In this document: in pieces, positions 28,990-64,000 of the stretch
Position numbering within the stretch: position 1 is the stretch's first letter
How the letters are laid out: each line of letters starts with the position of its first letter
Source: Candidatus Buchananbacteria bacterium
GTDB taxonomy: Bacteria > Patescibacteriota > Patescibacteriia > Buchananbacterales > UBA6539
Length of the DNA: 64,000 nucleotides
Assembly: GCA_013359225.1 (NCBI GenBank)
Contig: JABWCG010000001.1
Location: 497,627-561,626, forward strand
Direction: 5' to 3'
The notes under the pieces: generated by a model
What the model was told of the DNA's origin: nothing
Database searches by the model: none
The model's input: only the letters and a program-made list of their open reading frames with translations
Made by a program: the position numbers and the translations under genes

Positions 28990-28994
28990 AAAAC

Positions 28995-29381: not shown

Positions 29382-29412
29382 TACTAATTAATTTTTAACA
29401 TTGTAGCAATTA

Positions 29413-31158: not shown

Positions 31159-31166
31159 TTAAAAAA

Positions 31167-31478
31167 TTACTGCTCAAGGATACTAAAAGGTATGGATTGA
31201 AAGGGGTTTGGCCTCCCGAGTGCGCCAATTTCCACCGGCAAATTGCCATTTTCCTCTAATCTAGTATACGGTTCCTGAGATAAAAAGCTGGTTTCAAATT
31301 TTGTATTAATAGTCGGAACAACCAATGGTGTCACTTGAATCTCGGTTATTGCACTCGGCCGCATTAAATCTTTCAAAAAATTATCGTAAACCAAATAAGC
31401 AGTTACGCCAACTAAAACAGCCATAACTGAAAGAAGAAAAATTTTCTTTGGTCCTCTGATTTTCTTTGGCAACAGCAT
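31167..31478 (-). CDS. Small membrane-anchored T4P-associated protein (possible PilP analog).
   Basis: 103 aa with a single N-terminal TM. It lies between pilO and pilB. Confidence 0.4.
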   Translation of the reverse strand: MLLPKKIRGPKKIFLLSVMAVLVGVTAYLVYDNFLKDLMRPSAITEIQVTPLVVPTINTKFETSFLSQEPYTRLEENGNLPVEIGALGRPNPFQSIPFSILEQ

Positions 31479-31484
31479 AGGTTT

Positions 31485-32102: not shown

Positions 32103-32105
32103 AAA

Positions 32106-33356: not shown

Positions 33357-33359
33357 ATA

Positions 33360-36979: not shown

Positions 36980-36991
36980 AAATCTTTTTGA

Positions 36992-37951
36992 TCAATAAGA
37001 CGCTTTCACTTTAAATTTAACTTTAACACCGGTGATCACGGCGTTTGTCGGAATATTAAATCCGAAATTACTGGACCATAAACCATCAGATAATTGCTGA
37101 GTACTTGGCGTGGTGACAGTCTGAGCAACACTGCCGTCTTCGGTAGCGGCATTTTGCGGATTAGTCCACGCCGCCGAAGCACTTTCACTGTGACTAGTAA
37201 CCGTGCCGGAAGTTTTAACTGTTGAATAGCTGTTGGTGACCACGGCATCAGGCAAATTAACAGGTGTGCTGCACGTTCCACCAAAGTCCCCCTCGGTTAG
37301 GCGCACCTGATAATCAGACGAGCTACAATTATCATCACAACCCAAAGAAATTAAGCCGTTGTCGCCCAAAGCAATGGCCTTAGCCCAGCCAACAATCGGC
37401 GGATTATCGGTACCGTTGGCGGTAGCAGTAGCTGCCCAACCGCCGGATGGAATCAATGAACCATAATCAGCCGGATTGCACCCGCCAGTGGCAAATTCAC
37501 AAATACGGGACGGATCACACTGTTGACCAAAACAAACCCAACCGATGCTGTCGGCCCAGGAAAATCCGGTAACCTGATTATTGGCATCAATTTGAGTGTA
37601 ATAGGTTACTGTCTGATCGGTACAAGCGGAAGTTGAAACCCCTGGCGCCAGATATTTCCAATCGCAGTTATCGCTATTCAAAGACAGCCAGCCAAAATTT
37701 TCACTCCAGGCCCAGCCCATTAACTTGGCGCCACAGCTTGCTGTACAGCGCGGCGTATCCCCAGACTCGTCGCACTTCTCAAATAACCCGTCGCTGTTTG
37801 GCGATTGTACAATACCGTCACCACACACAGCGGGTGGCGGGGTTACTGTTTGAGCCTGCACTAAAATTGCTCCGGCTAACGCCGTAACAGTCAGCAGACA
37901 AAAAGTTAACGCGACTCTTTTAATCATTGGTGTTTGTTTTGAAGTTAACAC
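36992..37951 (-). CDS. Secreted Cys/Trp-rich repeat protein.
   Basis: Signal peptide plus a motif repeated three times: GWAWSENFGWLSL, GFSWADSIGWVCF and GWAKAIALGDNGLISLGC. It has many Cys. Confidence 0.5.
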   Translation of the reverse strand: MLTSKQTPMIKRVALTFCLLTVTALAGAILVQAQTVTPPPAVCGDGIVQSPNSDGLFEKCDESGDTPRCTASCGAKLMGWAWSENFGWLSLNSDNCDWKYLAPGVSTSACTDQTVTYYTQIDANNQVTGFSWADSIGWVCFGQQCDPSRICEFATGGCNPADYGSLIPSGGWAATATANGTDNPPIVGWAKAIALGDNGLISLGCDDNCSSSDYQVRLTEGDFGGTCSTPVNLPDAVVTNSYSTVKTSGTVTSHSESASAAWTNPQNAATEDGSVAQTVTTPSTQQLSDGLWSSNFGFNIPTNAVITGVKVKFKVKASY

Positions 37952-40900: not shown

Positions 40901-41688
40901 AACACTCCACCCTCACCAATACAATTGCCAGTGCCGTCACAAATTGTTCCCGAAGCTGTAATATTGCCCGTAACGCTCAATGGCTGATTGGCAACAATTT
41001 GATCTCGCTTTAAGGTCAATACCGCCTGGTCATTACCGCTCGACAAATAATTCAAGTTATTTACAAACACCAACTGGTCGTTGGTATCATCACCCCACTT
41101 AACAATCAATTGATCACCATCGCCGCTTCCAGTACCGCCCTGAGCCACCGTGCCTTCAGCAAAAGACGGATATACTTCAAACCAGTCATTCAAAAAATGA
41201 AACTGCGTTTTGCCGCTGTTATAAACGCGCAAACCAAGATCGTTAGGATCGTCACCACCGTCGTTATAAATCCAACCGCGGCTGTCCTGGCTCCAAAAAC
41301 TGCCACCACCAGTAACACCATCCCAAGAGCTAACACAGCTTGCCGCATCATAAGGCGGTAAACATACCTGGGGAGTTTTGATCGCACCCTGACCGATAAT
41401 TACTTCATTAGAAGTGCCTTCCGCGACAATGACCTGGCTTTCAACCTTAGCCGGACCGGTAATATTAATTTGGGCATTTTGCCGCTGGCTGGAGCTGTTA
41501 AAAATAAACCCGGGAGGGTTACCTTCCGGTGGGTTACCCGGAGGCCCTTGGTATTGAGCCAAAACCACCGCACTGGTAACAAAAAAAGTGACAGCAAACA
41601 CCGTCACCATTACGACCACTGAACTAAACTTTGTTGTTAGTTTAACTTGGTTTTTCATAAATTTACCCACGATTCTCGTTACAAACAC
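37984..41688 (-). CDS. Giant (1234 aa) surface fibre protein with a C-terminal phage tail-fibre-type intramolecular chaperone (peptidase S74) domain and dockerin-like Ca-binding repeats.
   Basis: The N-terminus has a TM anchor. GTICDG(T/S)GNCIG occurs twice. Dockerin/EF-hand-like pairs are DVNADGKVDEAD and DLNRDGSVNAVD. A Cys-rich knot precedes SDARLKNIAGRYQYGLDEVLALNPVVFSFK...VGLIAQDVEPIIPEAV...YLGLNQNSIIYAMLNAIKEQQEQIVKLQ, which matches the S74 autoproteolytic chaperone consensus. Confidence 0.75.
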   Translation of the reverse strand: MFVTRIVGKFMKNQVKLTTKFSSVVVMVTVFAVTFFVTSAVVLAQYQGPPGNPPEGNPPGFIFNSSSQRQNAQINITGPAKVESQVIVAEGTSNEVIIGQGAIKTPQVCLPPYDAASCVSSWDGVTGGGSFWSQDSRGWIYNDGGDDPNDLGLRVYNSGKTQFHFLNDWFEVYPSFAEGTVAQGGTGSGDGDQLIVKWGDDTNDQLVFVNNLNYLSSGNDQAVLTLKRDQIVANQPLSVTGNITASGTICDGTGNCIGEGGVFVPGTGAGSATYLGRMNVTGADSIGIKLSQDKALTTLSDSNTFAITNGEIALNRLSARGTIDAHTDLCLTSAGITQCGLTVAQLQSAGLPAAMSATRPFRSSGVPQILIDEGPDKISRIELLGQNASGIVGNVGPNSRFSDINEKFALVVANPTYPGGQGIWINTADNNKFGFVGIGVTNPQARLDVAGTTFFRSNPTTGGGQAEIEAYYNESLAFPSTVAELNNSNRSSYGAIFGGGFRVNEYYDAATDTMKKTRRGPSGTIEMKEWGDWMFSVVPDAAAGANANTGRKTPLVIKNDGRIGINTSGGNWNDGTVMDSGNNGLTINAVNGNALDTYSGTTYANRPPYAYSGIRLWDNGIGWGTGNQYWGIWHRSGKDDAGVTLDNAFRINYYTGAANGSHVEAFNINPNGNTGIGVTNPVSDLHVDGQILASGLDGARMTLGNGPSNPLTSDVWVMDNYYYPSSSNYNKLFRIYRQDNLTTAQAGWQNFFLISTNGNVGLGIVPTNTSGNKLHVAGNIKANGTICDGSGNCIGAAGGSSTPGGLGYDVNADGKVDEADQTIVVNCTLGVASCTTIYRSRSDLNRDGSVNAVDVQMIINAILFNKPTWVTSGNNIYNANVGNVGIHTATPNAELHIYSGANAGEKTYPNSGEYDGLLVNTYWNTSDANYGVVDFVSGRYTNSSSGGSKIRFFTQPRTGATGAVPPQVRMEIDKDGSVGIGTATHAAVRLRTAISGQSTEAVVGTNNTQDSVAGVGDSVWGSLAQNVGGTGGYGVGVFGFSATPNGIGVQGSVTNSTGYSGYFTGGRGVYVDKLCFANGECKTSWSGGIVSACTPNCSGKECGDNGCGGTCGTCATDETCNISGICEGTDPKSDARLKNIAGRYQYGLDEVLALNPVVFSFKAGNPYNLSTKQQVGLIAQDVEPIIPEAVSYDDKGYLGLNQNSIIYAMLNAIKEQQEQIVKLQVQLDELKGTK

Positions 41689-48206: not shown

Positions 48207-49547
48207 ATGGGCAAAATCACCGAAATTTACATTTGCTCAAATTGTGACAGTCAATCGCCTAAATGGCAGGGCCGCTGCCCTGAATGCGGTCAGTGGGGAA
48301 CATTGGAAAAATCGCTCCAGCCTTCCCAAGCCAGTTCTCGCGCTACCCAAAACAACTTTCCCGCAGCGAAAGTTGTTTCGTTTTCCGACATCAAAACTGG
48401 CGACTACGAAAGGCTAAAAACAACCATTGACGAGTTTGACCGCGTTTTAGGCGGTGGTTTTGTTCGTGGTTCGTTAATTTTACTTGGCGGAGAACCCGGT
48501 ATTGGCAAATCAACGCTGGTACTACAAATTAGCGAAAAAGTTACCCAGCCGGTGTTATATGTTTCCGGAGAAGAATCAGCACAGCAGATTAAAACTAGAA
48601 TTGATCGGCTCAACATTAATTACCAAAATATCCGGTTTGTCGGCGAAACCAATATTGAGTCGATTATCGGGGCCATCAGTGAACAAAAGCCAGCGTTAGC
48701 AATTATTGATTCTATCCAAACAATCTATTCAAATGAATCACCTTCCGGCGCCGGCAGCATCAATCAAGTCCGAATTTGCACCACTAAATTACTTGAAGTG
48801 GCCAAAAAAAATAACATCACTATTATGATTATCGGCCACGTCACCAAGTTTGGGGAGGTTGCCGGTCCAAAAACTCTTGAACACTTAGTCGATACTGTCT
48901 TATACCTTGAGGGCGATCAGTACCATTCGTTTCGTATCCTGCGAACTGCTAAAAATCGCTTTGGTTCTACGTCCGAAGTCGGCATCTTTGAAATGCAAAG
49001 CCACGGGTTAGCCGAAATTAAAAACCCGTCTGCAATCTTCCTTGATGAGCAAAAACCAGCCGAAGGATCAGTTATTACTGCCACCCTTGAAGGTTCGCGA
49101 ATTTTCATGCTTGAAGTCCAAGCTCTCACCAGCCTAACGGTCTTTGGATATCCTCAGCGTAAAACCAACGGCTTTGATCTAAACCGTCTGCAGCTTTTAT
49201 GTGCAACACTGTCCCGACGAGCCGGCCAGAAGCTAGCTAACCAGGATATTTATCTTAATTTAGTTGGCGGCTTAAAAGTTTCCGAACCGGCGATTGATTT
49301 AGCGGTCTGTCTGGCAATTGTTTCCGCCCTAAAGAATAAATCACTTGATCATAGTATGGTCGTTTTTGGCGAAGTAGGTTTGGGCGGCGAAGTTCGGCCA
49401 GTAAACCAAGCCGCTAAAAGAATTAGCGAGGCGGAAAAATTAGGCTTTAAAAACATTATCATTCCCGAAAGTGGCGAAAAAATAAACTCTAAAATAAAAA
49501 TCAGCCGAGTCAAGAACTTAGCCGATGCCATTAAACTTATGATCTAG
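48207..49547 (+). CDS. radA: DNA repair protein RadA/Sms.
   Basis: Zn finger CSNCDSQSPKWQGRCPECGQWG, Walker A GGEPGIGKST and a Lon-like C-terminal domain. Confidence 0.9.
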   Translation: MGKITEIYICSNCDSQSPKWQGRCPECGQWGTLEKSLQPSQASSRATQNNFPAAKVVSFSDIKTGDYERLKTTIDEFDRVLGGGFVRGSLILLGGEPGIGKSTLVLQISEKVTQPVLYVSGEESAQQIKTRIDRLNINYQNIRFVGETNIESIIGAISEQKPALAIIDSIQTIYSNESPSGAGSINQVRICTTKLLEVAKKNNITIMIIGHVTKFGEVAGPKTLEHLVDTVLYLEGDQYHSFRILRTAKNRFGSTSEVGIFEMQSHGLAEIKNPSAIFLDEQKPAEGSVITATLEGSRIFMLEVQALTSLTVFGYPQRKTNGFDLNRLQLLCATLSRRAGQKLANQDIYLNLVGGLKVSEPAIDLAVCLAIVSALKNKSLDHSMVVFGEVGLGGEVRPVNQAAKRISEAEKLGFKNIIIPESGEKINSKIKISRVKNLADAIKLMI

Positions 49548-49549
49548 CT

Positions 49550-51622
49550 TTATTCCGGATGAACGAGTGCTAGAAAATCTTTTAGTTTATACTTCAAATC
49601 AGGATAACCATCTAAACGGTTATCTTTTTTAACTATTCCTTCGGCCGCAATTTTCGCCTCTTGAATTAGCCGATAATCGGTTAACGTCGCCAGTTTAAAT
49701 TCTGGAAAGCCAGACTGGGTTGTCCCATAGACTTCACCAGGGCCGCGCAGTTCAAGATCTAATTCAGCCAACTCAAAACCATCTTTAGCGCTGACCATCG
49801 CCCGTAGACGCGCTGCGGTCTTTTGGCTATTTTGTTCCGAAACCAAAAAACAATATGACTGATAGCTACTCCTGCCAACGCGGCCACGGAATTGATGTAA
49901 TTGAGCCAGACCAAAACGATCTGCACCCTCAATCAACATAACACTCGCATTTGGCACATCAACCCCCACTTCCACCACTGAGGTCGCAACTAAAATTTTG
50001 CTTTTGTTAGCCAAAAAATCAGCCATAATTCGTTCTTTATCCATTGATTTGAGCTTTCCATGAAGCATTGAAATAGTTAAATCAGAAAAAACAGTACCAC
50101 TAAGACGCTCATACTCTTCAGTCACTGACCGAACCCCTAATGTATCAGACGGATCAATTAATGGACAAATAATAAACGCCTGGCGACCCTGATCAATCTG
50201 CTGCCGAATAAATTCATACGCTTCGTTCCTCTTAGAGCCTTCAACCAGCTTAGTAATAATTTTTTTTCTTTCCTTAGGCATCTCTCGGATGATTGACAGG
50301 TCTAAATCACCATATAACGCTAAAGCTAGACTTCGAGGAATCGGCGTTGCCGTCATTGACAAAAGATGGGGCGTAGTTGCACTGTTGCCAGAGTTCTCCC
50401 TAAGATGTTTGCGCTGAGTTACACCAAAACGATGCTGTTCATCAATAACTGCCAGCGCCAAACTATTAAATTTCACACTCTCCTGAATTAACGCATGTGT
50501 TCCAACAATAATTTTGACTTCACCAGAGTTAATACCCGATAGCATTTTTGACTGGGAAACTTTTTCGTTATTAATTAGCTTCTGAGATCGAGTCAATAAA
50601 CCGGTTTTGATGTTTGAATTGGAAAAAAGTTTGCTGATTGTCTGGTAATGTTGGCTCGCTAAAATTTCAGTCGGGCTCATTAAAACACTCTGCTTTTCAT
50701 TTCTAGCCACATTCAACATTGCTAACAACGCTACTAGAGTTTTCCCCGACCCGACGTCCCCCTCTAGTAAGCGATTCATGGGTCGCGACTGTTGCAAATC
50801 AGAAATTATCTGCCACGCTGCTTTACGCTGATCATTAGTTAGACTGAAGGGAAGTTGAGAAATAAAATCTTTTGTTTCTTGTTCTTTAAACAAAACAACT
50901 TCGGCAGTTTCTTGCCTAATTTCCGAACGGTTGATCATTACCCGCAACTCAAATAAGAACAGTTCGTTGAATTTTAGCCGGCGAATTGCTTGATCAAGCA
51001 ATTGCTGATTATCGGGAAAATGAATCTGTCGCAATGCCTCTGATAAACTCATTAATCGATATGATGTAATAATTTCTGGAGGCAAAAAATCAACTACCTG
51101 ATCCACCGCCACGAGCGCTGATTTAATTAAAAATCGAATTTGTTTAGCAGTTAAACTATGAGTCAAAGGATAAATAGGAACAATTCTGGCAGTATGGGTG
51201 GTTGAACCATTAGTTACCTTCTCATAAACCGGGTTAGTCATTTGAAACCCGTAACGACCGAAGTCAACCTTGCCGGAGAAGTACACCTCATCTCCGATTT
51301 GTAACGTCTTTGCCAAAAATGGCTGATTAAACCAAACAATCTTTAAGGATCCGGACTCGTCAGCCACTAAACCTTCTGTCAAAATTTTTCTTTTAGCCAG
51401 ACTACGACGGCTGCTTAAGAGCTGAATTTTAACCTTAATAGTTGAAAGTTCTCCGGTTTTAAGCTCACTGATTTTTGATATTTTACTTAAATCTTCCCAC
51501 CGCCAAGGATAATAAAAAATGAGATCGTTGACGGTCTCAATTTCTAGTCTTTTTAAGCGATCAGCAGTCGTCTTTCCAACGCGCGTGATCTGTGATACTG
51601 GCGTGGTCAATGTTAACTTCAT
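49550..51622 (-). CDS. recG: ATP-dependent DNA helicase RecG.
   Basis: Helicase motifs GDVGSGKT and DEQHRFG with an N-terminal wedge domain. Length is 690 aa. Confidence 0.9.
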   Translation of the reverse strand: MKLTLTTPVSQITRVGKTTADRLKRLEIETVNDLIFYYPWRWEDLSKISKISELKTGELSTIKVKIQLLSSRRSLAKRKILTEGLVADESGSLKIVWFNQPFLAKTLQIGDEVYFSGKVDFGRYGFQMTNPVYEKVTNGSTTHTARIVPIYPLTHSLTAKQIRFLIKSALVAVDQVVDFLPPEIITSYRLMSLSEALRQIHFPDNQQLLDQAIRRLKFNELFLFELRVMINRSEIRQETAEVVLFKEQETKDFISQLPFSLTNDQRKAAWQIISDLQQSRPMNRLLEGDVGSGKTLVALLAMLNVARNEKQSVLMSPTEILASQHYQTISKLFSNSNIKTGLLTRSQKLINNEKVSQSKMLSGINSGEVKIIVGTHALIQESVKFNSLALAVIDEQHRFGVTQRKHLRENSGNSATTPHLLSMTATPIPRSLALALYGDLDLSIIREMPKERKKIITKLVEGSKRNEAYEFIRQQIDQGRQAFIICPLIDPSDTLGVRSVTEEYERLSGTVFSDLTISMLHGKLKSMDKERIMADFLANKSKILVATSVVEVGVDVPNASVMLIEGADRFGLAQLHQFRGRVGRSSYQSYCFLVSEQNSQKTAARLRAMVSAKDGFELAELDLELRGPGEVYGTTQSGFPEFKLATLTDYRLIQEAKIAAEGIVKKDNRLDGYPDLKYKLKDFLALVHPE

Positions 51623-52444: not shown

Positions 52445-53110
52445 CTAATTTTTCGCTATAACTAAGGCCCAAACCCTTTTAGCACCGGCCTGTTTAAGCA
52501 CTCTAGAAAGCTCATCAATCGTCGAACCGGTAGTAAGAACGTCGTCAATAACTAATACTCTTTTTCCTTTCACAGCCTGCGCATCAATCAAACTAAAAAC
52601 ATTTTTTATGTTTTGCCTTCTTTCTAGGGCATCGTTTCCGACCTGAGGTTCTCGATTTTTTCTAATCAAAATATTATTTTCAAAGTTAATATCTGCCTGC
52701 CGGGCAACTGTTGCGGCCAACATATCTGCCTGATTAAAGCCCCGAAACAATAAACGTTTTTTCGAAATTGGCATCGGAACGACCAAATCAATTTTGGGCA
52801 ACGCCTGATTGAGAATCAAACGGGTCAGATATTGTTCCAAAATTATTTCAAGACTCAAGCCAAGCTCCCTGACAAATCGGTATTTAAAATGGTAAATGAT
52901 CTTTTGCAACAACGGATCGTTAAAATCGGAAATCACCCAAACTCCGTCGGTATAATCAGTAACAAAATAACTATTGCTAATATCCGGATTAATTTTTATT
53001 TTTTTTAAACAATCACTGCAAACTAATTCATTATCTTTGTTACATCCCAAACATTGCCGGGGAAAAAATAAATCCAAAATCTTTTCTCGTATCAACATAG
53101 CATATACCAA
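52445..53110 (-). CDS. comFC: ComF-family phosphoribosyltransferase-domain protein.
   Basis: N-terminal Cys pairs CLGC...CSDC and the PRTase motif VLVIDDVLTTGSTI. Confidence 0.8.
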   Translation of the reverse strand: MVYAMLIREKILDLFFPRQCLGCNKDNELVCSDCLKKIKINPDISNSYFVTDYTDGVWVISDFNDPLLQKIIYHFKYRFVRELGLSLEIILEQYLTRLILNQALPKIDLVVPMPISKKRLLFRGFNQADMLAATVARQADINFENNILIRKNREPQVGNDALERRQNIKNVFSLIDAQAVKGKRVLVIDDVLTTGSTIDELSRVLKQAGAKRVWALVIAKN

Positions 53111-53134: not shown

Positions 53135-53728
53135 TTATTGCCACTCGGCCGCGTCCACTTTCCAAGCACCATCAACTTGAGTCATTGACAACTTTAACTT
53201 TTGATAAAAAGCTCTTGGATTGTCAGTTGAGACAATTGATTCAGACCTCTGTGTTGAAACAATCACTTCCGCACGATTAAAATCCTGATCAAATTCTGAA
53301 ATCTCGGCGGCAATTGCCTTTGTGGTGACACCATAATATTCGGAGTTATCCGCCTGGCGCTGAGAAAGTTTAAAATTCTCCACCCAAGCTTTCATTTTAG
53401 CCGTCATCAAATCCGCTGAGTCATCAAGATTGCTGAAATAAACTTCGTTTGAGTAGCTTCCAAAACGTTCAGCAAAAGTAAAGGCGATAGCTTTCAATTC
53501 TGCCTGGGAATCTTTTTGTTCTTCGGGCACGCCGGTAGTGTCTGGCAAACCAGCCGAAGCAGTCGGTAAAGTCGCTGGAACTTGAATTTCACTTGGGTTT
53601 TGATTAACATTCTGATTTACCGGATTGTTAAGATTGGCTCTGGTAAACCACCACCACAAAAAAGCTGCAATAACTCCGATGATGACAACAGTGATAACTC
53701 CGATGATAATTTTTTTTCTTCTCGTCAT
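53135..53728 (-). CDS. Hypothetical membrane-anchored extracytoplasmic protein.
   Basis: N-terminal TM (IIIGVITVVIIGVIAAFLWWWF) and Asn/Gln-rich spacers. Confidence 0.4.
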   Translation of the reverse strand: MTRRKKIIIGVITVVIIGVIAAFLWWWFTRANLNNPVNQNVNQNPSEIQVPATLPTASAGLPDTTGVPEEQKDSQAELKAIAFTFAERFGSYSNEVYFSNLDDSADLMTAKMKAWVENFKLSQRQADNSEYYGVTTKAIAAEISEFDQDFNRAEVIVSTQRSESIVSTDNPRAFYQKLKLSMTQVDGAWKVDAAEWQ

Positions 53729-53762: not shown

Positions 53763-55655
53763 TTACTGCTGAGTCATTGACTCATTAAATTCTTTCTTTG
53801 CCTCCTCAATCTCCAAAATCTGACGTGGATCGGAAGTAATTAACTGATCTTCAGTATAGGATGCTACTACCTTAATCGCTGCATGCTTATCGCCGGCAAA
53901 AAATATTCCTTCACCAACGCCAGACTCCAACAATAAATATTTTTCACCCTCAGTAAGAATGAAGGTTTTTTGCACCAAATCAATAGCTGCCGGGGACTGG
54001 CGCATCAATAACTGGATTGAAGAGTTATTAACAATTGCCTGGCCATACGGCGAAAGCAAAAAGTCATTAACGTCTTGGGTAATATTCGTCACACCTAAAT
54101 AATATTTGCGACATCGCTTTACCAATGCGTAAATAAATTTAGCAGAATCTTCATTTTGCATTAACCACCATGCCTCATCAATAATCAATACCCGCTTCTT
54201 GAGCTCTGACCGGACCACATTCCAAATGTAGTTAACAATCGTATAAATAGCCATCGGCCGCAACTCATCTTCAAGATCTCGAACTGAAAAAACCACAAGC
54301 TGATTTTTAGTATCAACGTTTGTAGGACTGTTAAATAACCCGGAGAAAGTCCCCTGAGTATACTTTTTAAGTCGAAGCGCTAAATCACCTCCGCCCTCCA
54401 TACCTTCCAAAACATCCTGAAAATCCTGCATGATCGGCGGCTCAATCTTACTGAGATCGGAGTCGGACGTAATGTCTTTTTTGGCATACGTTTCTAACAG
54501 CGCTCGGTCAATGATGGAATCCTCTTGATGAGACAATTCTCCCAGCATCAATCTGATCAGACCTTTGATGGTGATTACCGCCCCACGAATGACATCAGAG
54601 GCTCGCTGTTCACCAACCGCCCGCGGCAGATCAAATGGGTTGATTTTACTTTCAGAACTTAATGAAATATTAACATACGTTCCACCAACGGCATCAGACA
54701 AATGTTTATATTCGCGCTCTGGGTCAATAACAATAACATCTGTTCCCATCATCATCGTTCGCAAAACTTCCAGTTTGATAGCATAACTCTTTCCGGCACC
54801 AGACGTGGCAAACACCACCGTATTGGCGTTTTGCAAGGAAAAACGGTCAAATAAAATCAAACTATTATTATGTCGGTTGATGCCATACAAAATTCCCTCG
54901 TCAGAAGTCAATTCTGATGAGATAAACGGAAACGATGAAGCAACCGGTGAAGAGTTCATGTTAAAACCAATCATCAGCTCATCATTGCCAAGTGGTAAAG
55001 TTGAATTAAAACCCTGTTCAGCCTGATACAACACTTTTTTTGAAAATACCAATCGTGAACCAAACAGAGACTCCACATCGCCAGTCAGGTTATCAAGCTC
55101 TTCTTTAGTATTTGCGTACAACGTGACATACAAACCAAACTGGAAAAAATGTTCAACTCCCTGAGTCAAATCGTCGCGCAGTTTTTCAATATCGCGCAAT
55201 GCAGTTTCACGAATCGGATCGCGCGGCGCTCCTTTCTCGCGATCGGCCAGGATTTGAGCCTCTAGAGCACCAACCTTATTGCGCAACTGTTTTAAAATAA
55301 TATTTGATTTCACCGGGTAAAAAAACATCGCAATATCCAGTGCCACGCTTAAATTAATGATTGGGGCAAACCAGCCAACTGCAATATATCGCGGATAACC
55401 GATAACAAAAAGTGTTCGAACAAAACGATCACCCAACTTAATGAAAGTCGGCGTCACTTCCAGCGCTGCCGGAGAAATTAGATCTTTAATTGAAACAACG
55501 CCTTCCCGATATATTCTTTCTTCCTCAAGCACTGATTTTGCTTCCAAAATTTCTTCCTGCTCTTTAACCTTTTTCTGCTCAGGCGAAAGCACTTGTTCAA
55601 CCGGCTGATCCTCCAAAGCCTGCTGCCTAATTAAATCTTTTGGTTTAATAGCCAT
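53763..55655 (-). CDS. VirB4/TrbE-family conjugative T4SS ATPase, ATPase portion.
   Basis: Walker A FATSGAGKSY and the VirB4-type Walker B VLIIDEAWWLM. Length is 630 aa. It is in-frame with the upstream ORF across one TAA. Confidence 0.75.
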   Translation of the reverse strand: MAIKPKDLIRQQALEDQPVEQVLSPEQKKVKEQEEILEAKSVLEEERIYREGVVSIKDLISPAALEVTPTFIKLGDRFVRTLFVIGYPRYIAVGWFAPIINLSVALDIAMFFYPVKSNIILKQLRNKVGALEAQILADREKGAPRDPIRETALRDIEKLRDDLTQGVEHFFQFGLYVTLYANTKEELDNLTGDVESLFGSRLVFSKKVLYQAEQGFNSTLPLGNDELMIGFNMNSSPVASSFPFISSELTSDEGILYGINRHNNSLILFDRFSLQNANTVVFATSGAGKSYAIKLEVLRTMMMGTDVIVIDPEREYKHLSDAVGGTYVNISLSSESKINPFDLPRAVGEQRASDVIRGAVITIKGLIRLMLGELSHQEDSIIDRALLETYAKKDITSDSDLSKIEPPIMQDFQDVLEGMEGGGDLALRLKKYTQGTFSGLFNSPTNVDTKNQLVVFSVRDLEDELRPMAIYTIVNYIWNVVRSELKKRVLIIDEAWWLMQNEDSAKFIYALVKRCRKYYLGVTNITQDVNDFLLSPYGQAIVNNSSIQLLMRQSPAAIDLVQKTFILTEGEKYLLLESGVGEGIFFAGDKHAAIKVVASYTEDQLITSDPRQILEIEEAKKEFNESMTQQ

Positions 55656-55658
55656 AAG

Positions 55659-56336
55659 TTATTCAACTCGTAATTTGTTTATCTCAACCAATTTTTCCCG
55701 GCTGGAAACATCCGGATTATAGGTATTATAATATAGTTCAATTAAGCTCTGCGTGTCTAACACTACTGCCTTTAAACTCATACTTGATAATCCGGTAATA
55801 ACATGTTCGACTCTCTGAAACAAAGCATGCCGCCGTTTCATAAACTCCGATTGCGTTAACTTGACCTCTTGAGCCGCCGAAAATACACCCAAAAACCGCT
55901 TAAACCAGGATTTCTGTTTATCAGAAATTGGGTCGTAAGGCACAACAACATAAAAACGCTTATTCATAATATCACCAATTTCAACCAGTTCACTGACATA
56001 CTGACGATATTCAGCCGTCTGCATCCGCAGCAATTCATTAGTCTGTTCTTTCTCAATCTTTTTCAAACGATTCAAGTAGCCGTCAATATCAAGTTTACGG
56101 GACTGGATTACAATCTGGAGCGGAAATTCTAGAAAGTTTAAAAACCCGATATACGCGGCAATAATGGCATTTTGTTCTTCTTCCGATTTCAAAGAAAAAT
56201 TAAGGCTCGACACCAGCACCACTGAACGCAAGGTCCCATCTTTAAGAATAACCGTATCCTCCTTGATTTCAGCAATATCAAGATAACCCTGAGCGGATGT
56301 TGTAATCTTTTTATTGGCAAGTTTCTTGGATTTCAT
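55659..56336 (-). CDS. VirB4-family N-terminal domain, encoded as a separate 225-aa ORF.
   Basis: GYLDIAEIKEDTVILKDGTLRSVVLVSSLNFSLKSEEEQNAIIAAYIGFLNFLEFPLQIVIQSRKLDID matches the CagE/TrbE/VirB N-domain pattern. It ends E-TAA-L-ATG, in-frame with the ATPase ORF. Confidence 0.55.
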   Translation of the reverse strand: MKSKKLANKKITTSAQGYLDIAEIKEDTVILKDGTLRSVVLVSSLNFSLKSEEEQNAIIAAYIGFLNFLEFPLQIVIQSRKLDIDGYLNRLKKIEKEQTNELLRMQTAEYRQYVSELVEIGDIMNKRFYVVVPYDPISDKQKSWFKRFLGVFSAAQEVKLTQSEFMKRRHALFQRVEHVITGLSSMSLKAVVLDTQSLIELYYNTYNPDVSSREKLVEINKLRVE

Positions 56337-56347: not shown

Positions 56348-56806
56348 TTAAACAAGTTGCTGCAAACTACTTGGAGGTTCTTTTTCACCCTGATACACTC
56401 CGCCAGTGTCAACAATGAGCGCCATTTCAGCCAGCCGGGAAGCCCGAACCCGGTTTTTGGTTCTAATCTCCGGTGGCAGTGGCAAGGTCTCTTTCTTATT
56501 ATACCTTTTTAACTCTGAATTGGTAAAAGTTTTCTGCCAAACCCTAATCTTCGGCCTCTTAGAGGTCTGTAAAACATTTAAAATAAAATAATGGACCGGC
56601 CGACCGTTGATTTTAATAAAGGCAACGCCAAAAGTCAGAACAGAAATGACTACAAATAAAAAAAGAAAAAGGCTGAAATCAGACAATTTATAGGCGACAA
56701 AATCAAGTCCCGCGCCAACCAGCACAATAATAAACTGCCTGACCGTTACCGGGCCAATAATTTTATCTTCAACATCAATAAATTGTGGAACGACGAACTG
56801 TTGCAT
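56348..56806 (-). CDS. PrgI/VirB3-like small T4SS membrane protein.
   Basis: 152 aa beginning QQFVVPQFIDVEDKIIGPVTVRQFIIVLVGAGL, followed by a TM pair. It sits immediately upstream of the VirB4 genes. Confidence 0.5.
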   Translation of the reverse strand: MQQFVVPQFIDVEDKIIGPVTVRQFIIVLVGAGLDFVAYKLSDFSLFLFLFVVISVLTFGVAFIKINGRPVHYFILNVLQTSKRPKIRVWQKTFTNSELKRYNKKETLPLPPEIRTKNRVRASRLAEMALIVDTGGVYQGEKEPPSSLQQLV

Positions 56807-57931
56807 TTAATAGCGTAGTCTTTTATTTAAGTCAAAAATTGCTTCAAGCTCTTCTTCAGTTAAAGTCGGCAGGCCTTGTTGTGTGCGCTCGGCGATAACT
56901 TCCGAAACCGGCTTATGTTCTTCCATGCTTTGATCACCTAAAGAAAGGTACAGCCGGTTAACCTCGCTTTCCTTCCAAGCTTTGATGGCCTCAACCTTCT
57001 TAGGGAAGGATTCATCTTCTAATAAAGCAACTTTATCAAGTATCTTTTGAACTGCCATACTTGGTGTTGGTGACAAGCGCCTGAAGTCTTTGAGCGTCAT
57101 GGTTCGAATTTCCTCAATCGGACCAGTCAGCTTAGGTTTAAATTTAACATCTTCAATTTTTGGCTTTGACCCGATGGCACTAACTACCGGTCGACTCATC
57201 ACCGGTGCATCTGCTATCTGTGTTGGCGCCGGACTAATAGGTGGTTGTGCTGGTGTTGGTGGCGTTAAATCAGCAGGCATTTCCGGTTTAAAAAGGGGCT
57301 TAGCCTCAATAGGTTGCACCTCTTTAATAATTGGCTCTGCTAAAATTTTTTTTGCTTCTTCCTGGAGTTCCAAAAACTGATCAGTACTGATATTTTGTCG
57401 ATGACGATGGTCAAAATCCTGCAATTCCCGGCTAATTGCCGCCAAAATTTTATTAATCGTTTCAGTATCAAAAGCCGTTCCTTCGGTTAATCGAAATTCC
57501 TGCAGCGATTCCTTTGTTTGAAGGTGATTTCTAATTCCCCGCAAACGGGAACTCACAATACTACGAAATTTTTTCTCATCTTCCGGCGAAGTAAAATGTA
57601 ACTCCGCATTCTTAATTACCGAGCTAATTTCTTCTTCCAACCTCAATGGTTCACCAAACGATCGAGTTGGCTGAACCGGTGCTACAGCTTCTTCTACCTC
57701 AGGTTCAATGGTTAGCGGTTTACTCGCCACCGACGATTGGGACGTAGAATTTGTAAGCCCTTGACCAACTGGCTGCTCGTAATCCAAAACTTGGTCACCT
57801 CGCAAAATCTTCAAGTTTCCCTGCTCATCCTTAAAAATAATTTCATCATCAGGCACCGCTGCCTTAGCCTTCTGCTCTTGTTCAATCAGGCTGAAAAAAT
57901 CATCTGTTTTTTGAGTCAAATTCTGGACCAT
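56807..57931 (-). CDS. Hypothetical Pro-rich protein.
   Basis: 374 aa with a PADLTPPTPAQPPISPAPTQ linker. It abuts the PrgI-like gene. Confidence 0.4.
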   Translation of the reverse strand: MVQNLTQKTDDFFSLIEQEQKAKAAVPDDEIIFKDEQGNLKILRGDQVLDYEQPVGQGLTNSTSQSSVASKPLTIEPEVEEAVAPVQPTRSFGEPLRLEEEISSVIKNAELHFTSPEDEKKFRSIVSSRLRGIRNHLQTKESLQEFRLTEGTAFDTETINKILAAISRELQDFDHRHRQNISTDQFLELQEEAKKILAEPIIKEVQPIEAKPLFKPEMPADLTPPTPAQPPISPAPTQIADAPVMSRPVVSAIGSKPKIEDVKFKPKLTGPIEEIRTMTLKDFRRLSPTPSMAVQKILDKVALLEDESFPKKVEAIKAWKESEVNRLYLSLGDQSMEEHKPVSEVIAERTQQGLPTLTEEELEAIFDLNKRLRY

Positions 57932-59165: not shown

Positions 59166-60542
59166 TTATTCAAACCAATTAAAGGTTTTTGAATTAACAT
59201 CAAAATATGCCATTTTATTATAACTTTTTTTACCCAAACTGACAAAAATATTCCCGATTTTCTGGCCAACCCTCGCCGCTTCGTTCGCCGGCATGTTCAA
59301 GCGCTGCTCTAAAATATAGCGCAAAAAGGTCCGGATAAACTTGGGCTGAGCCGGAGTAGTCTTGAATTCCAAAGCAAAATCGGCGCCATACTGTTTTTCC
59401 CAAGTCACCAACAAAAATTTATTTAATTTCTCATCTTCAACAACAAACTTTTCCAAATCATCGGCCTGCGCCAAAATTCGTAACAAGGCAACCGTTCTAA
59501 TGATATTTTTATTTTGCACGGCAACCATAAATTCTGATCTTAGCTGTTGATTGTTATCACCAATCTTTTTAGAAATCTTTTCCATTTCCTTATCAATAGC
59601 AGAAGCCATTTTGACGTCACCACGATACGCCGCAACAATTTCTTCTTGGACTTGAGTAGTCTGAACAGTTGAATTTTCTACGACGACCGGATTAACATCA
59701 GTGGGGTTCGTATCAATTGCCGGACCAGCACTTTCTGACGGTAGAATAAAATCATTTTCTGAAATTGTTTTGATTTTTTCCGGCAATGGGCTCTTGCGAC
59801 CAGTATTAGTATTAGTCAAATTAATAATAGTTCCGTTTTCAATAGCCTTAATTTGTCCGTCGGCATCAATAAATACCAAATCATTCTCAACTCCTTCCGG
59901 TGTCATCGAAGAGGTTGTTAGGCGAAATAACAGCTTAAGCAAATTCTTTACTTTTAACCTATCTGCTTCAGACATTTTCAAATAATTTTTATTCTTCATG
60001 GTGTATTCAGCAAAATCAAGGTCGGTTGCCCTCACCCCTTTATTTTTGAAATAATCTGTAATTATATTGGCAACGGTCGCGGATTTTTCTTCGCCGTCAA
60101 CAACAATTTTTTGGTTGCTAATCAATTCTGTGTTATCACGCAGATGGTTTAAAAGTCTTTGTTTGAATTTATCCCGATCGGTAATTGGCAACTGAATCAA
60201 AAAAGCATTTAATCGGTCAAATAATCCAATATCGTCATCGGCTAAAACTTTAGCAATATCTTTTTCAAATAATGAGGTAACCACATTGTCCGACCAGCGC
60301 GGCAAAGATGTGAACTTTAACCTCACATTAGCCAGATTCAGCCGGTCAATATTGCGGGGAGAAATTTTTTCATAGTTTTTGGCCTGGAGCTCATCAATAA
60401 TCTTACTTAATTTGTAGGACTGTAAAATTTCCAAATCAAAAACTAACTGCTGAGACAAGCCTTCAATTTGGTCAACCAGCTGATTCGGATTTTCACCGCT
60501 GGCAACCGACTGTGCAATTGTTTTTAATTCTGTTTCGTACAT
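59166..60542 (-). CDS. Hypothetical soluble protein.
   Basis: 458 aa with no recognised motifs. It lies in the same tight gene string. Confidence 0.4.
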   Translation of the reverse strand: MYETELKTIAQSVASGENPNQLVDQIEGLSQQLVFDLEILQSYKLSKIIDELQAKNYEKISPRNIDRLNLANVRLKFTSLPRWSDNVVTSLFEKDIAKVLADDDIGLFDRLNAFLIQLPITDRDKFKQRLLNHLRDNTELISNQKIVVDGEEKSATVANIITDYFKNKGVRATDLDFAEYTMKNKNYLKMSEADRLKVKNLLKLLFRLTTSSMTPEGVENDLVFIDADGQIKAIENGTIINLTNTNTGRKSPLPEKIKTISENDFILPSESAGPAIDTNPTDVNPVVVENSTVQTTQVQEEIVAAYRGDVKMASAIDKEMEKISKKIGDNNQQLRSEFMVAVQNKNIIRTVALLRILAQADDLEKFVVEDEKLNKFLLVTWEKQYGADFALEFKTTPAQPKFIRTFLRYILEQRLNMPANEAARVGQKIGNIFVSLGKKSYNKMAYFDVNSKTFNWFE

Positions 60543-60564: not shown

Positions 60565-63500
60565 TTAAAGCTCTCTTGGCCCCGAGGGCGGATTTTTTTT
60601 GCCTTGACTGCGATACAACGCCCTAATTCCGTTATTAATTGAGGTTAATAAACCAGAAGTGCTGGTCGGGTCAAGCGTACCGCCTTGTCTGGCACGACCG
60701 AGTTCGCCGAGCGCCTGGGCAATCTGAGTTTTTGCGTTTTGGTTAACCTGATTCTGCGGTAACTTAGCAAGCGATGACTGCATTGAAGTTAAAACATTTT
60801 CAATGTCAGACAACGCCTGAACAACCTCTGTTGAGTCAAAACTTCCTTTCAAAGCCTCCTGAACTTCTTCCGTCCTTTGAGCAACTTCTTCTTGGGCGGC
60901 TTTCACATATTCTTGAGGATTAACTCGCGAAGCCGCAGCTTCTTGAGCCGCCGGAGACGTTTCCCGAGCCGCCTGACGAACGGCCGAACGAGCTGCCGCG
61001 CTTGGAACGCCGCGAATTGAATCAACCATTTCTTTTGCCCGCAAGGTATCAGAGGCGGCCTTGGCGTATTCATCAGCCGCTTTCTTTAATCGTTCACGAG
61101 CGCTGCTAATTTCTGTATCAATATAGTCGTTGCGCTGCAATTCCTGATTACCTTCATTAGTCAAACGTTTTGCTTCGCCCACATTACCGGCCGCTTCCGC
61201 CTGTTTTGCCCGATCGAATAGGGCTTTGGCCGAGGCTTCACGTTGCCGTTTTTCTGATTCCCGTTCCCGAATATATGATTCTTCGCTGGTTTTAACCGTA
61301 TCATACTGGGATCGTGCACCACGCAAAGTTGAACGTGACGAACGATAAGTCTGCAAAGCGTCAAGCTCTTCCTGTTTCATTGCGCCCTCTAAAACTTCGT
61401 CCACTTTACCGGCAACCTGACCGGCCCGAGTCTTGATTGCTGAAGCAACGGTTCCCACCCCGGCGCCAACCTTGTCAAAACCTTTACCAACCTTGCTACC
61501 AAAAGCTCTTGCGGCGGAAGCGGCTTCACTCATCTTTTCAACACTCGCCTCACCACGAGACTTAATACCCATACCCTCTAATACTGCTCGAGTCTTGTTA
61601 TTCATTGCATACACACCCTTGCCAACACCAGCCATTTCAGCCACTGCTTCACGCTTCAAATCTTGATTACTAATACCATAGCCATACCGCTTGCGCAAAT
61701 CAGCTTGAATATCGCGCCGCTGGCTGGCATTTAATGAATTCCAATATTCATCAAGCTGTTGATCCGACATACCCATTGTCGAAGCATGAGCTTCTTCGTG
61801 GCGCTTAATATCTTCGTGCTGGTCAGTACTGCTGGTGTTAAATACTCTAAGGGTTTTGGCACGGCCGAGGCCTTCACGAACCCGATTAACAGCGTTATCA
61901 ATTCCTTCGTCAGTCATATTGAGCCTACCTTCTTCTCTTCTGCTTAAGAGCTGTTTACGATAAACTTCGGCAATTTTACTAATTGTTAAAAATTTACTAG
62001 CTTCATCATAATAAGCACCACTCATACCCTCTTCAACTCCCAAGGCTGCACGAACTTCTTCATTATCAAAATTAAGTCCTACGCCTGCTTGTAACGCACC
62101 TTCCTCAACTTCCGCCGGCAAAACAATTTTATCTCTATCTCGCTTATTTAAGACATAATCGCGCCACCGGAAATCTTTTTCAGCTTCAAATTGTTCCGGA
62201 TTAAAGTCAGCACTTTCAAAAAAGTTAAGTCCGGCATCCTGGTAACGGTCAACCATTTCACGCGTCCGGTCATGCTTAGTGCGGTCAAAGTCCTGCGCCA
62301 TACGAGGTGCTGACGGTACAGCACCAACAGCCGGAGTCGGAGTCGGCTCCGGAGCAATTCCCGGAATATAGGTATTAGTTCTAATGTCGTTAATAATATT
62401 GTCGTACGCCACCTGGCCAATCTGGGCGGATTTCTTTTGTGCAATTTCAGCAGCCAGATTATTGGCAAATGTTTCAATACCACCATTCTTTTTGATATAC
62501 TCTACTTCATTTGGTCTATCAACACCATTTCGGCCGCCATATTTAAAGCCAATTGTGGCATATGCCAAACCTCTGATGTTATTAGCCAGCATAGTATTAC
62601 CTGACTGTTCAGCCACCCGAGCTGTTTCTAACATCACGTCCACGTTTTCATATAACCGATCTTTGATTTCGTTAGACGCCATGTGAAATTCCGCCACCAT
62701 AGCTTTCGGGTTACGCTCCAGGTTAATCATGGCAAATTCCGACATACCAGCACCCATCGTATGAGTTTTATTTGGATCCTTAATATCATGCGGCCGCACC
62801 TCTTCCAAAAATCCTTGCCAAGTAGCAGTTTGGATGAATCTACGTCCCTCTTTCTTAGCCGCATATTTCTCTGCAATATCCTGCTGCTCCAGATAGCGGC
62901 CTTTGTCTTTAGTCATTAATTCAAATTTGCCGTTTTGAATATTCTTATTGCCCATTTTATACAAAAAGCCATCTTTGTTTGCAAAACCAACTTCACCCAA
63001 GTCAAACGCCACCTCTGCTTGAAATTCTTCGCCATAATCTTTAAACATATGGCGAACCGCTTCCTGAACATTATGTGTTGTATATTTAATGTTGCCATTA
63101 GAATCTCGATCCAGTTTTCGGGCTTGTTTTTCGGCATCGGTCAGTCCGGCTAATCGGACGTCGTCATTTGTATAATTATCGCCAAAAACATCCTGAGCCT
63201 GTAAAACAATTTCGTTAGCATTGTGGTCAGCCGTTAACTGCCGCAATTTAGCAATGGCATACACTTCACGGCCGGCCTTAACTTTGCCGGTTTTATCCAA
63301 GTCTTCATTCCGTAATTTATTCAAAACTTCTTCGGCGTCAGTTGTGGTGTCGGCTAATAGCCGCTGTTCGGCTGCAACCTCTCCGGCCCGTGCCCGTCGC
63401 GTGGCATTAGTCGGATTTTGATTAAACGGAATTGTACGGTTAAATACGTCCGTTAACGCCTGAGTACCAAGCCGCATGCGTTCACCTTCAACTCGCTGCC

Positions 63501-64000
63501 CTCGGGCCTGCCATGCTGCCGGAATCGAGCGTAAACGTAATCCGCCTTCCCGACCCAACTGGTCAAACCCTCTTTTCCGGCCCCAGGAAGTCTCACCAAT
63601 TCTTCTAAACAACGGCGCATTAACTTTAGCAAATAAATCATCGGCTCGTTTACCTGTCCAACGAAGCGCTGTAGCCTGGCCGGGGATAAATTTGCCTCGT
63701 CTGATATTTGAAAAAGCCGCTCCCGCAAAACTGCCGCCAGCCGTACCCATTTGTTGGGCAATTACCAACCCCGCCATCAGCATACCAATACCGATAATTA
63801 AAGATAATAATTTATTAACGTCGCCAATGCCGCTAAAAATCGCCGTACTGCCGGTGCCGCTGTTTGATTGAGTAAACTCATTAACTAAATCGGCTCCAGT
63901 CCCCGTTAATCCGGACTCTGCGCCGGCCGTCACTGAAGTGCCATCCAAAGGTATATCAACAGAGACTTGTCCTTGTTCCACCACGGCAAAAGATAACCAC
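60565..64000 (-). CDS. Very large (more than 1139 aa) membrane-anchored coiled-coil protein with an HEEAH motif; the 5' end runs off the window.
   Basis: The ORF is open to the window end, so the track start is not a real ATG. One N-terminal TM (LLSLIIGIGMLMAGLVIA) is followed by a long charged alpha-helical region containing IKRHEEAHASTMGM. Confidence 0.45.
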   Translation of the reverse strand, partial: WLSFAVVEQGQVSVDIPLDGTSVTAGAESGLTGTGADLVNEFTQSNSGTGSTAIFSGIGDVNKLLSLIIGIGMLMAGLVIAQQMGTAGGSFAGAAFSNIRRGKFIPGQATALRWTGKRADDLFAKVNAPLFRRIGETSWGRKRGFDQLGREGGLRLRSIPAAWQARGQRVEGERMRLGTQALTDVFNRTIPFNQNPTNATRRARAGEVAAEQRLLADTTTDAEEVLNKLRNEDLDKTGKVKAGREVYAIAKLRQLTADHNANEIVLQAQDVFGDNYTNDDVRLAGLTDAEKQARKLDRDSNGNIKYTTHNVQEAVRHMFKDYGEEFQAEVAFDLGEVGFANKDGFLYKMGNKNIQNGKFELMTKDKGRYLEQQDIAEKYAAKKEGRRFIQTATWQGFLEEVRPHDIKDPNKTHTMGAGMSEFAMINLERNPKAMVAEFHMASNEIKDRLYENVDVMLETARVAEQSGNTMLANNIRGLAYATIGFKYGGRNGVDRPNEVEYIKKNGGIETFANNLAAEIAQKKSAQIGQVAYDNIINDIRTNTYIPGIAPEPTPTPAVGAVPSAPRMAQDFDRTKHDRTREMVDRYQDAGLNFFESADFNPEQFEAEKDFRWRDYVLNKRDRDKIVLPAEVEEGALQAGVGLNFDNEEVRAALGVEEGMSGAYYDEASKFLTISKIAEVYRKQLLSRREEGRLNMTDEGIDNAVNRVREGLGRAKTLRVFNTSSTDQHEDIKRHEEAHASTMGMSDQQLDEYWNSLNASQRRDIQADLRKRYGYGISNQDLKREAVAEMAGVGKGVYAMNNKTRAVLEGMGIKSRGEASVEKMSEAASAARAFGSKVGKGFDKVGAGVGTVASAIKTRAGQVAGKVDEVLEGAMKQEELDALQTYRSSRSTLRGARSQYDTVKTSEESYIRERESEKRQREASAKALFDRAKQAEAAGNVGEAKRLTNEGNQELQRNDYIDTEISSARERLKKAADEYAKAASDTLRAKEMVDSIRGVPSAAARSAVRQAARETSPAAQEAAASRVNPQEYVKAAQEEVAQRTEEVQEALKGSFDSTEVVQALSDIENVLTSMQSSLAKLPQNQVNQNAKTQIAQALGELGRARQGGTLDPTSTSGLLTSINNGIRALYRSQGKKNPPSGPREL

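Follow-up and report, generated by a model that had tools for sequence, protein, structure and literature searches.

A T4SS gene cluster in a Candidatus Buchananbacteria genome raises the question of whether its VirB4 motor is encoded by one damaged gene or by two intact ones. In the stretch of DNA that we analysed (64,000 nucleotides, hereafter the window), an ORF of 225 aa and an ATPase ORF of 630 aa follow each other on the minus strand in a common reading frame. Their combined length is 855 aa, and their junction reads ...CGA GTT GAA TAA CTT ATG GCT ATT.... The first-pass annotation of this DNA had pointed out the shared frame, ...GAA TAA CTT ATG..., which the minus-strand sequence bears out. 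It proposed that the stop codon reflected a genuine split into two polypeptides, a recent nonsense mutation or a sequencing or assembly error. We consider it highly probable (approximately 0.95) that the locus is a standard Patescibacteria T4SS core operon in which the VirB4 motor is made from two genes, one for a TrsD-like protein of ~225 aa and the next for an ATPase of ~630 aa. A two-gene VirB4 has already been described as occurring throughout Patescibacteria, and the public record already annotates both genes of the locus (NUM25551.1 and P0121).

Gene order at the locus

The features of the locus are as follows, from 5' to 3' on the minus strand:

56807..57931, minus strand: conserved upstream gene with no assigned function (374 aa, Pro-rich middle)
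56348..56806, minus strand: PrgI/VirB3-like small membrane protein (152 aa, two TM-like segments)
55659..56336, minus strand: TrsD-like / 'TraC-like' protein (225 aa; NUM25551.1)
55656..55661, minus strand: junction (TAA at 55659-55661 and CTT spacer at 55656-55658)
53763..55655, minus strand: VirB4-family T4SS ATPase (630 aa; ATG at 55653-55655)
53135..53728, minus strand: VirB8-like bitopic protein (197 aa)
52445..53110, minus strand: ComF-like phosphoribosyltransferase-domain protein (Pfam Pribosyltran, DZR_2 and PRTase_3)

These genes form a tight, same-strand cluster and are presumably co-transcribed. A scan of positions 51500-60800 for promoters and terminators did not rise above the shuffled expectation, and it placed no terminator at the junction between the small ORF and the ATPase ORF. 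The 374-aa protein has no Pfam or NCBIfam matches. Its gene abuts that of the PrgI-like protein (spacer of 0), and among 80 related loci, 72 have a tblastn homologue 5' of the PrgI-like gene. As for the 152-aa protein, it matches Pfam PF12666 (PrgI) with an E-value of 3.9e-9 and 37.4 bits (cut-off 27), has TM-like segments at residues 16 and 36, and is encoded directly 5' of the small ORF in all 80 related loci.

Downstream of the ATPase gene, the 197-aa protein starts with a TM helix, which is followed by a disordered linker and then by an NTF2-like domain. The best PDB matches of its AF2 model (pLDDT 87.7) are CagV, PrgL, an IcmL-like protein, TrwG/VirB8, TcpC and DotI. A VirB8-like homologue lies 3' of the ATPase gene in 63/80 loci, and the ComF-like gene is a frequent neighbour (41/80). 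The 630-aa ATPase thus has the genetic surroundings of a T4SS inner-membrane component, with a PrgI/VirB3-like gene on its 5' side and a gene for a VirB8-like fold on its 3' side, and this T4SS gene order is kept in 63-80 of the 80 loci.

The ATPase ORF lacks the start of VirB4

The 630-aa ORF matches the Pfam families P-loop_TraG (PF19044, E 1.7e-28), AAA_10 (PF12846) and DUF87 (PF01935). Its translation contains SGAGKS and IIDEAW, within the Walker A (SGAGKS) and Walker B (LIIDEAWW) motifs that had been quoted for it. It is 100% identical to P0121, which NCBI lists as an 'ATP-binding protein' from a Ca. Buchananbacteria MAG. The only VirB4/TraC model whose cut-off it passes is NF045971 (conju_CD1110; 355.7 bits, cut-off 325); all the others score below theirs. 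The polypeptide does not hold a complete N-terminal domain: its matches cover positions 177-730 of 752 in NF045971 and 277-892 of 894 in VirB4_plasma, and begin at position 239 of 792 in VirB4_CagE. The best 120 ATPase homologues are 606-678 aa long, and there is no fused form among them.

The N-terminal part missing from the ATPase ORF is supplied by the upstream ORF. NCBIfam VirB4_plasma matches the small ORF at positions 92-234 of 894 (E 5e-10), with no overlap with the region covered by the ATPase. The 225-aa protein, in which the quoted SEEEQ...FPLQIVIQSRKLDID is indeed present, is labelled 'hypothetical protein' in GenBank (NUM25551.1). The best 120 of its 5,205 homologues are 188-240 aa long, almost all of them 220-240 aa, and none of these 120 is fused to an ATPase, the longest having 240 aa.

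Family assignment of the small protein is less direct. PF26593.2 ('TraC-like') is precomputed on all 120 listed homologues, among them P0001, the representative of the 90% cluster that contains the 225-aa protein; the assignment of the protein to PF26593 is indirect, by way of these annotations. In our local Pfam scan, neither the small ORF nor P0007, a precomputed carrier of PF26593, matched this family, and the model may be absent from the local copy. The same scan gave no significant family for the small ORF, the best match being TraC_F_IV (E 0.02). With the NCBIfam TrsD/TraD model NF041427 it scores 24 bits (E 2.9e-5), far below the curated cut-off of 200, and hhalign aligns its family profile with TrsD over 120 columns with a probability of 73.6% (E 2.9e-5). 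At the level of sequence, the likeness to TrsD points to remote homology rather than family membership.

Structural comparison also leads to VirB4. Although the AF2 model of the small protein is of moderate confidence (pLDDT 69, pTM 0.58), TrwK/VirB4 of R388 fills the first 14 ranks of its Foldseek matches, with probabilities of 0.72-1.00, modest E-values (4e-3 to 0.11) and TM-scores of 0.36-0.47; later matches have probabilities of at most 0.33. As a separate polypeptide, the 225-aa protein is equivalent to the initial ~200 residues of the N-terminal domain of VirB4.

It could be argued that the small ORF is an additional, paralogous copy of a VirB4 N-terminus, or that it encodes some accessory protein without kinship to VirB4, rather than being the piece that the ATPase lacks. 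Its similarity to VirB4 N-termini is remote, with an E-value of 5e-10 for one model and of 0.02-0.085 for TraC_F_IV and PRK13853, and its family profile matched PDB sequences at chance level only (E >= 0.18). Nevertheless, the ATPase ORF is without this region, the two ORFs cover separate parts of the same 894-position model, and a natural fusion, P0375, follows VirB4_plasma colinearly in one stretch. We find this alternative very improbable.

A rare natural fusion

P0375 has 898 aa and is encoded on five contigs, downstream of a PrgI-like gene. It matches VirB4_plasma from position 92 to position 893. Its residues 2-223 match the small ORF with 39% identity and its residues 322-892 the ATPase with 51% identity, the two parts being separated by a Pro/Ala-rich stretch of roughly 100 aa. 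The break between the two genes falls at this long, disordered linker. Fused members are rare: when the small-ORF family is clustered at 50% identity, only one of its 150 best representatives is fused.

The junction between the two ORFs

A stop codon follows the small ORF in 77/77 species-level related loci that have both genes, and it is TAA in 57 of them, TGA in 12 and TAG in eight. The spacer between the two genes ranges from -8 to +240 nt in these relatives, with a median of 15. The two ORFs are in frame in 26 of 76 related loci (34%). As this matches the one-in-three proportion expected by chance for adjacent genes, the sharing of a frame at the junction is a coincidence, and the common frame in the Buchananbacteria genome carries no functional meaning.

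A programmed read-through of the TAA, giving some fused full-length VirB4 beside the two separate products, would be favoured by the CTT codon alone standing between stop and start, and P0375 indicates that nature tolerates a fused form. However, the in-frame relation is not conserved beyond chance, and the three closest relatives (L001-L003, with spacers of 2, 5 and 5 nt) are all out of frame. In addition, some in-frame relatives carry at least two stops in the spacer, for example TAA TAA in L013, and stops and spacers vary among relatives instead of a single stop being conserved. Of the stop codons, TAA leaks least, and it is not known to be recoded in this lineage. Read-through of this kind has very little chance of being correct.

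As for a recent nonsense mutation that would have turned a single virB4 gene of ~855 aa into a pseudogene, it would account for two ORFs lying in one frame, one stop and one codon apart, and the 898-aa relative provides a precedent for the fused form. Yet the stop is found at the end of the small ORF throughout the 77 loci, where stop codons, frames and spacers vary, and the best 120 homologues of either ORF lack fused forms. Both ORFs are under strong purifying selection, with pN/pS of roughly 0.12-0.2 and saturated pS (pN of 0.10-0.15 for the small ORF and of 0.08-0.11 for the ATPase, against pS of 0.75-0.85). Furthermore, the M-A-I-x-P N-terminus of the ATPase is kept as a start in its closest relatives. 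Such a recent mutation is almost certainly the wrong explanation, and so is an error of sequencing or assembly: the source is a metagenome-assembled genome, but thousands of assemblies, produced by many projects from many sources, have independently yielded the same two-gene structure, and the small ORF ends with ...KLRVE, the same conserved C-terminal peptide as in its relatives.

Sequence comparison thus indicates that the stop between the two ORFs marks an ancient split, neither recent nor an error. To describe the locus as a single gene broken by one in-frame TAA, as in the first-pass annotation, is misleading. That annotation had recommended an alignment of orthologues, naming two uniformly separate genes as the outcome that would tell against its view, and the orthologues are uniformly of this kind. 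Among its explanations, the orthologues support the genuine split, with two closely spaced products that jointly match VirB4.

The 3-nt gap may allow coupling by termination and reinitiation, and translational coupling of the two ORFs is plausible from their spacing. Coupling cannot be a general requirement, since the spacer exceeds 30 nt in 30/76 relatives. The Shine-Dalgarno-like sequence before the ATPase ATG is weak, which is not distinctive because most genes in the 64-kb window have no strong one.

Comparison with known systems

Quinonero-Coronel et al. (2025, Microb Genom; PMC12102498) reported 2,272 homologues of TrsD in Patescibacteria, 1,664 of which adjoin virB4, and described a remote homology between TrsD and the N-terminus of VirB4. 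In that work, Ca. S. epibionticum could not grow as an epibiont without the T4SS, the TrsD homologue was essential in Ca. S. epibionticum ML1, and comF, recG and radA were found near T4SS genes in the class ABY1. Our locus belongs to the same lineage (class ABY1, with a Buchananbacteria-type cluster), has the same gene pair beside PrgI/VirB3, and lies in a window that contains the comF/recG/radA neighbourhood. There is no substantive difference between the two descriptions; the anatomy of the junction is absent from the paper. What is added here are the statistics of frames and spacers, the equivalence of the break point with that of another system, the rare fusion and the VirB8-like fold of the downstream gene. 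In the main text of Guglielmini et al. (2014; PMC4027160), TrsD is not named.

The other system is that of the staphylococcal conjugative plasmids pGO1 and pSK41 (MPF_FATA, pGO1 subclass), with TrsD/TraD and TrsE/TraE. The gene order of pSK41 is that of the window: a VirB3-like gene (TrsC position), TrsD of 227 aa and TrsE, a DUF87 ATPase of 672 aa that is 26% identical to the ATPase of the window (E 7e-47). TrsE begins at VirB4_plasma position 265, and the ATPase of the window at position 277; the break point is the same as the TrsD|TrsE boundary of pSK41. The two loci differ in other respects. TrsD of pSK41 scores 227.6 bits on NF041427, compared with 24 for the small ORF. The trsD gene overlaps the upstream gene and ends 14 nt before trsE, whereas the spacer is 3 nt in the window. 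Finally, pSK41 is a conjugative plasmid, whereas the locus of the window is chromosomal, and no relaxase or coupling protein was found beside it.

Single-chain VirB4/TraC proteins (TrwK of R388 and the CD1110 and Mbov_0397 families) have the same ATPase domain and Walker motifs as the window pair and are likewise associated with VirB3. The combined length of the pair (855 aa) and its colinear coverage of the models also match theirs, and the model of the small ORF resembles TrwK of R388. In single-chain proteins, however, the N-terminal ~225 residues are part of the same chain, whereas in the window they form a separate polypeptide.

A probable VirB4 motor in two pieces

In the two-gene arrangement, the first gene provides a TrsD-like protein of ~225 aa with a 'TraC-like' domain, which corresponds to the beginning of the N-terminal domain of VirB4, and the second gene a protein of ~630 aa with the remainder of that domain and the Walker A/B ATPase domain. 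The two polypeptides would assemble non-covalently. In the structure of the R388 system, the N-terminal domains of VirB4 touch VirB3, VirB8 and the membrane. By analogy, the small subunit would connect the ATPase ring with two membrane proteins, one PrgI/VirB3-like and one VirB8-like.

It is tempting to speculate further, with odds that we place well against it, that the N-domain protein is an autonomous adaptor whose copy number is independent of that of the ATPase, for example filling only part of the positions in the VirB4 assembly and forming a bridge to PrgI/VirB3 and the VirB8-like protein. According to this unlikely scenario, the pGO1/pSK41 break point would mark the Patescibacteria T4SS donor lineage, and the in-frame TAA of this genome could add trace read-through into a fused form.

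As for the two-gene VirB4 itself, the value of our result lies in the correction that it brings, and little in discovery. As a rule of thumb, an in-frame stop between adjacent ORFs has no weight unless relatives keep the frame. The equivalence of the break points in pSK41 and Patescibacteria, the rare fusions joined by a linker and the presence of a VirB8-like gene directly downstream could guide the design of constructs for structural studies. When a Patescibacteria genome encodes a 'hypothetical protein' between prgI/virB3 and virB4, it should be taken for a detached N-terminal subunit of VirB4 (TrsD-like/TraC-like), and not for evidence that the gene is decaying or was wrongly assembled.

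Two adjacent genes at the junction

In the window, the gene of a 225-aa TrsD-like protein (the small ORF) precedes that of a 630-aa VirB4-family ATPase (the ATPase ORF):

55659..56336, minus strand: small ORF, 225 aa
53763..55655, minus strand: ATPase ORF, 630 aa

The ORF list and the minus-strand sequence bear out the in-frame pair with an intervening TAA described in the first-pass annotation. The small ORF ends in ...CGA GTT GAA TAA, after which a single codon, CTT, precedes the ATG of the ATPase ORF in the same frame. The small ORF contains the motif SEEEQ..FPLQIVIQSRKLDID, and the ATPase ORF harbours a Walker A motif (SGAGKS) and IIDEAW. An NCBI protein from a Candidatus Buchananbacteria MAG (P0121) matches the latter at 100% identity, and the former is NUM25551.1, 'hypothetical protein HUU49_02895', from the same contig. 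The two genes are thus already annotated in the public record.

Conservation of the split

The split is overwhelmingly conserved in relatives. We collected 5,205 homologues of the small ORF at E <= 1e-3; of the top 120, at 63-90% identity, nearly every one has a length of 220-240 aa, and none exceeds 240 aa. For the ATPase, the top 120 homologues (77-100% identity) comprise 606-678 aa, and neither set of 120 includes a fused form. A scan of GTDB species representatives yielded at least 579 loci, the best 80 of which were analysed. The ortholog comparison proposed in the first-pass annotation reveals the two-gene form throughout, as a stop codon terminates the small ORF in all 77 loci that have both genes (TAA in 57, TGA in 12, TAG in 8). 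In relatives the small ORF either overlaps the ATPase gene, by up to 8 nt, or is followed by a gap of up to 240 nt, the median spacer being 15 nt; the ATPase N-terminus (MAIxP, MAFxP or MFNP) is kept as a start. Relative to the three closest loci analysed (L001-L003, 76-83% identity), pN is 0.10-0.15 for the small ORF and 0.08-0.11 for the ATPase, with saturated synonymous sites (pS 0.75-0.85); both genes are under strong purifying selection.

Two neighbouring same-strand genes have a one in three chance of sharing a frame. The pairs share one in 26 of 76 loci (34%), as expected by chance, and the spacers of 2, 5 and 5 nt in L001-L003 place the ATPase gene out of frame, which leaves conserved read-through without basis. 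The in-frame stop in the window is a coincidence. Of the three explanations put forward initially, a genuine split into two polypeptides is the right one, given the stop in every locus with both genes and the purifying selection on each. A recent nonsense mutation creating a pseudogene is refuted by the conserved split, the variable frame and this selection, and a sequencing or assembly error by the conserved split among relatives.

Complementary parts of one VirB4

The ATPase ORF has P-loop_TraG, AAA_10 and DUF87 domains and scores 355.7 bits with the NCBIfam model 'VirB4-like conjugal transfer ATPase, CD1110 family', above its curated cut-off of 325. Its matches to single-chain models start at position 177 of 752 (CD1110), 239 of 792 (VirB4_CagE) and 277 of 894 (VirB4_plasma). 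The small ORF matches VirB4_plasma at 92-234 (E 5e-10). The two are thus complementary, non-overlapping parts of one VirB4; such coverage rules out a VirB4 plus a duplicated piece. The small ORF matches the TrsD/TraD family model weakly (E 2.9e-5), and we use the name TrsD-like without assigning it to the TrsD family, because it scores 24 bits against a curated TrsD cut-off of 200. Pfam PF26593 ('TraC-like') is carried by all 120 small-ORF homologues listed. The AlphaFold2 model of the small ORF is of moderate confidence (pLDDT 69); its top 14 PDB hits are without exception TrwK/VirB4 chains from the R388 T4SS, with nothing convincing below them.

When 1.84 billion representatives at 50% identity were searched with an HMM of the small-ORF family, 3,273 relatives were identified, and exactly one long form is found among the best 150. 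This protein, P0375 (898 aa), is a natural single-chain version in which a TraC-like N-domain is joined to the ATPase (L082 3001..5697; also L083 and L084). Its gene occurs on five contigs, which derive from several samples, immediately 3' of a PrgI-like gene, and the protein aligns to VirB4_plasma 92-893 in one stretch. The small ORF corresponds to P0375 residues 2-223 (39% identity) and the ATPase ORF to residues 322-892 (51%), on either side of a low-complexity Pro/Ala-rich stretch of ~100 residues. About a third (~47) of the best 150 small-ORF representatives are 280-443 aa long; the two that we read, P0254 and P0271, have long low-complexity C-terminal tails rich in Pro/Ala/Gln/Thr, and in them the disordered linker seems to have been kept with the N-domain gene. 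The stretch in P0375 and these tails thus place the break in a disordered linker, of which ~47 charged residues remain at the start of the window ATPase ORF.

The Staphylococcus aureus plasmid pSK41 has the order 135-aa VirB3-like gene, trsD (227 aa) and DUF87 ATPase TrsE (672 aa). The break point is common to both systems, the VirB4_plasma alignment starting at 265 for TrsE and at 277 for the window ATPase (26% identity, E 7e-47). The small-ORF family profile aligns with pSK41 TrsD with a hhalign E of 2.9e-5 and a probability of 74%.

Gene neighbourhood

The following genes surround the pair:

56807..57931, minus strand: 374-aa protein with a Pro-rich centre, abutting the PrgI-like gene (spacer 0)
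53135..53728, minus strand: 197-aa 'hypothetical' protein with a VirB8-like predicted fold, directly 3' of the VirB4 ATPase
52445..53110, minus strand: ComF-like gene, flanking the T4SS core
49550..51622, minus strand: RecG, flanking the T4SS core
48207..49547, plus strand: RadA/Sms-like gene, flanking the T4SS core

The order in relatives is 374-aa protein (present in 72 of the best 80 loci), PrgI/VirB3-like (80/80), TrsD-like (80/80), VirB4 (77/80, the remaining loci being truncated contigs), 197-aa protein (63/80) and ComF-like (41/80). The 374-aa protein, without Pfam or NCBIfam match, may be an undescribed component of the cluster. The 197-aa protein has no match in these databases either; its confident model (pLDDT 87.7) shows a TM helix at the N-terminus, joined by a linker to an NTF2-like domain, and its best PDB matches are the VirB8 homologues CagV, PrgL, an IcmL-like protein, TrwG, TcpC and DotI. 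A 2025 survey recovered few VirB8 homologues from Patescibacteria, nearly all being from class ABY1 (PMC12102498).

Spacers inside the window cluster are 0, 11, 3, 34 and 24 nt. Our scan found no terminator-like site at the junction and promoter-like matches in the region not above shuffled expectation, and a clear Shine-Dalgarno sequence is absent before most window genes. Tight spacing is a general feature of the genome, not a special coupling signal.

Other features of the window

A large type IV pilus-like cluster (16647..37951, minus strand) includes:

29413..31158, minus strand: PilB-like T2SSE ATPase with an MshEN domain
27916..28989, minus strand: PilT-like ATPase
26701..27906, minus strand: PilC-like T2SSF protein
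19477..20232, minus strand: prepilin peptidase

It also contains many small ORFs with one N-terminal hydrophobic segment, which are candidate pilins, and two polytopic glycosyltransferase-like membrane proteins (YfhO-like and TMEM260/PMT_2-like). Three large ORFs lie at its head or upstream of metK:

37984..41688, minus strand: 1,234-aa protein at the head of the cluster; hydrophobic segment at the N-terminus, dockerin type I domain, and Peptidase_S74 (endosialidase chaperone) domain at the C-terminus
59166..60542, minus strand: 458-aa ORF, upstream of metK
60565..63984, minus strand: 1,139-aa ORF, upstream of metK

The first is a candidate surface or adhesion protein. The other two have no Pfam or NCBIfam matches; among the best 80 of at least 579 related loci, homologues occur in 15 for the 458-aa ORF and in none for the 1,139-aa ORF.

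A two-gene VirB4 in a published arrangement

Sequence comparison has shown two conserved, selected genes that are together colinear with a single-chain VirB4 and broken at its linker. We propose that they would be co-transcribed with the PrgI and VirB8-like genes, and that the small subunit would bind the ATPase non-covalently. By analogy with R388, in which part of the VirB4 N-terminal domain touches VirB3, VirB8 and the membrane (summarised in PMC12857230), it might supply the part making these contacts. Termination-reinitiation at TAA-CTT-ATG is plausible in the window; it cannot be general, because spacers exceed 30 nt in 30 of 76 relatives.

T4SS genes were surveyed across Patescibacteria by Quinonero-Coronel et al. 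2025 (PMC12102498), who point out that in Ca. S. epibionticum ML1 the TrsD homologue is listed as essential and report comF, recG and radA as common within T4SS loci of class ABY1. The ComF-like, RecG and RadA-like genes near the T4SS core of the window follow this ABY1 pattern exactly, and match the competence/recombination neighbourhood reported for that class. The arrangement has therefore already been described, and the window locus is an ordinary member of it.
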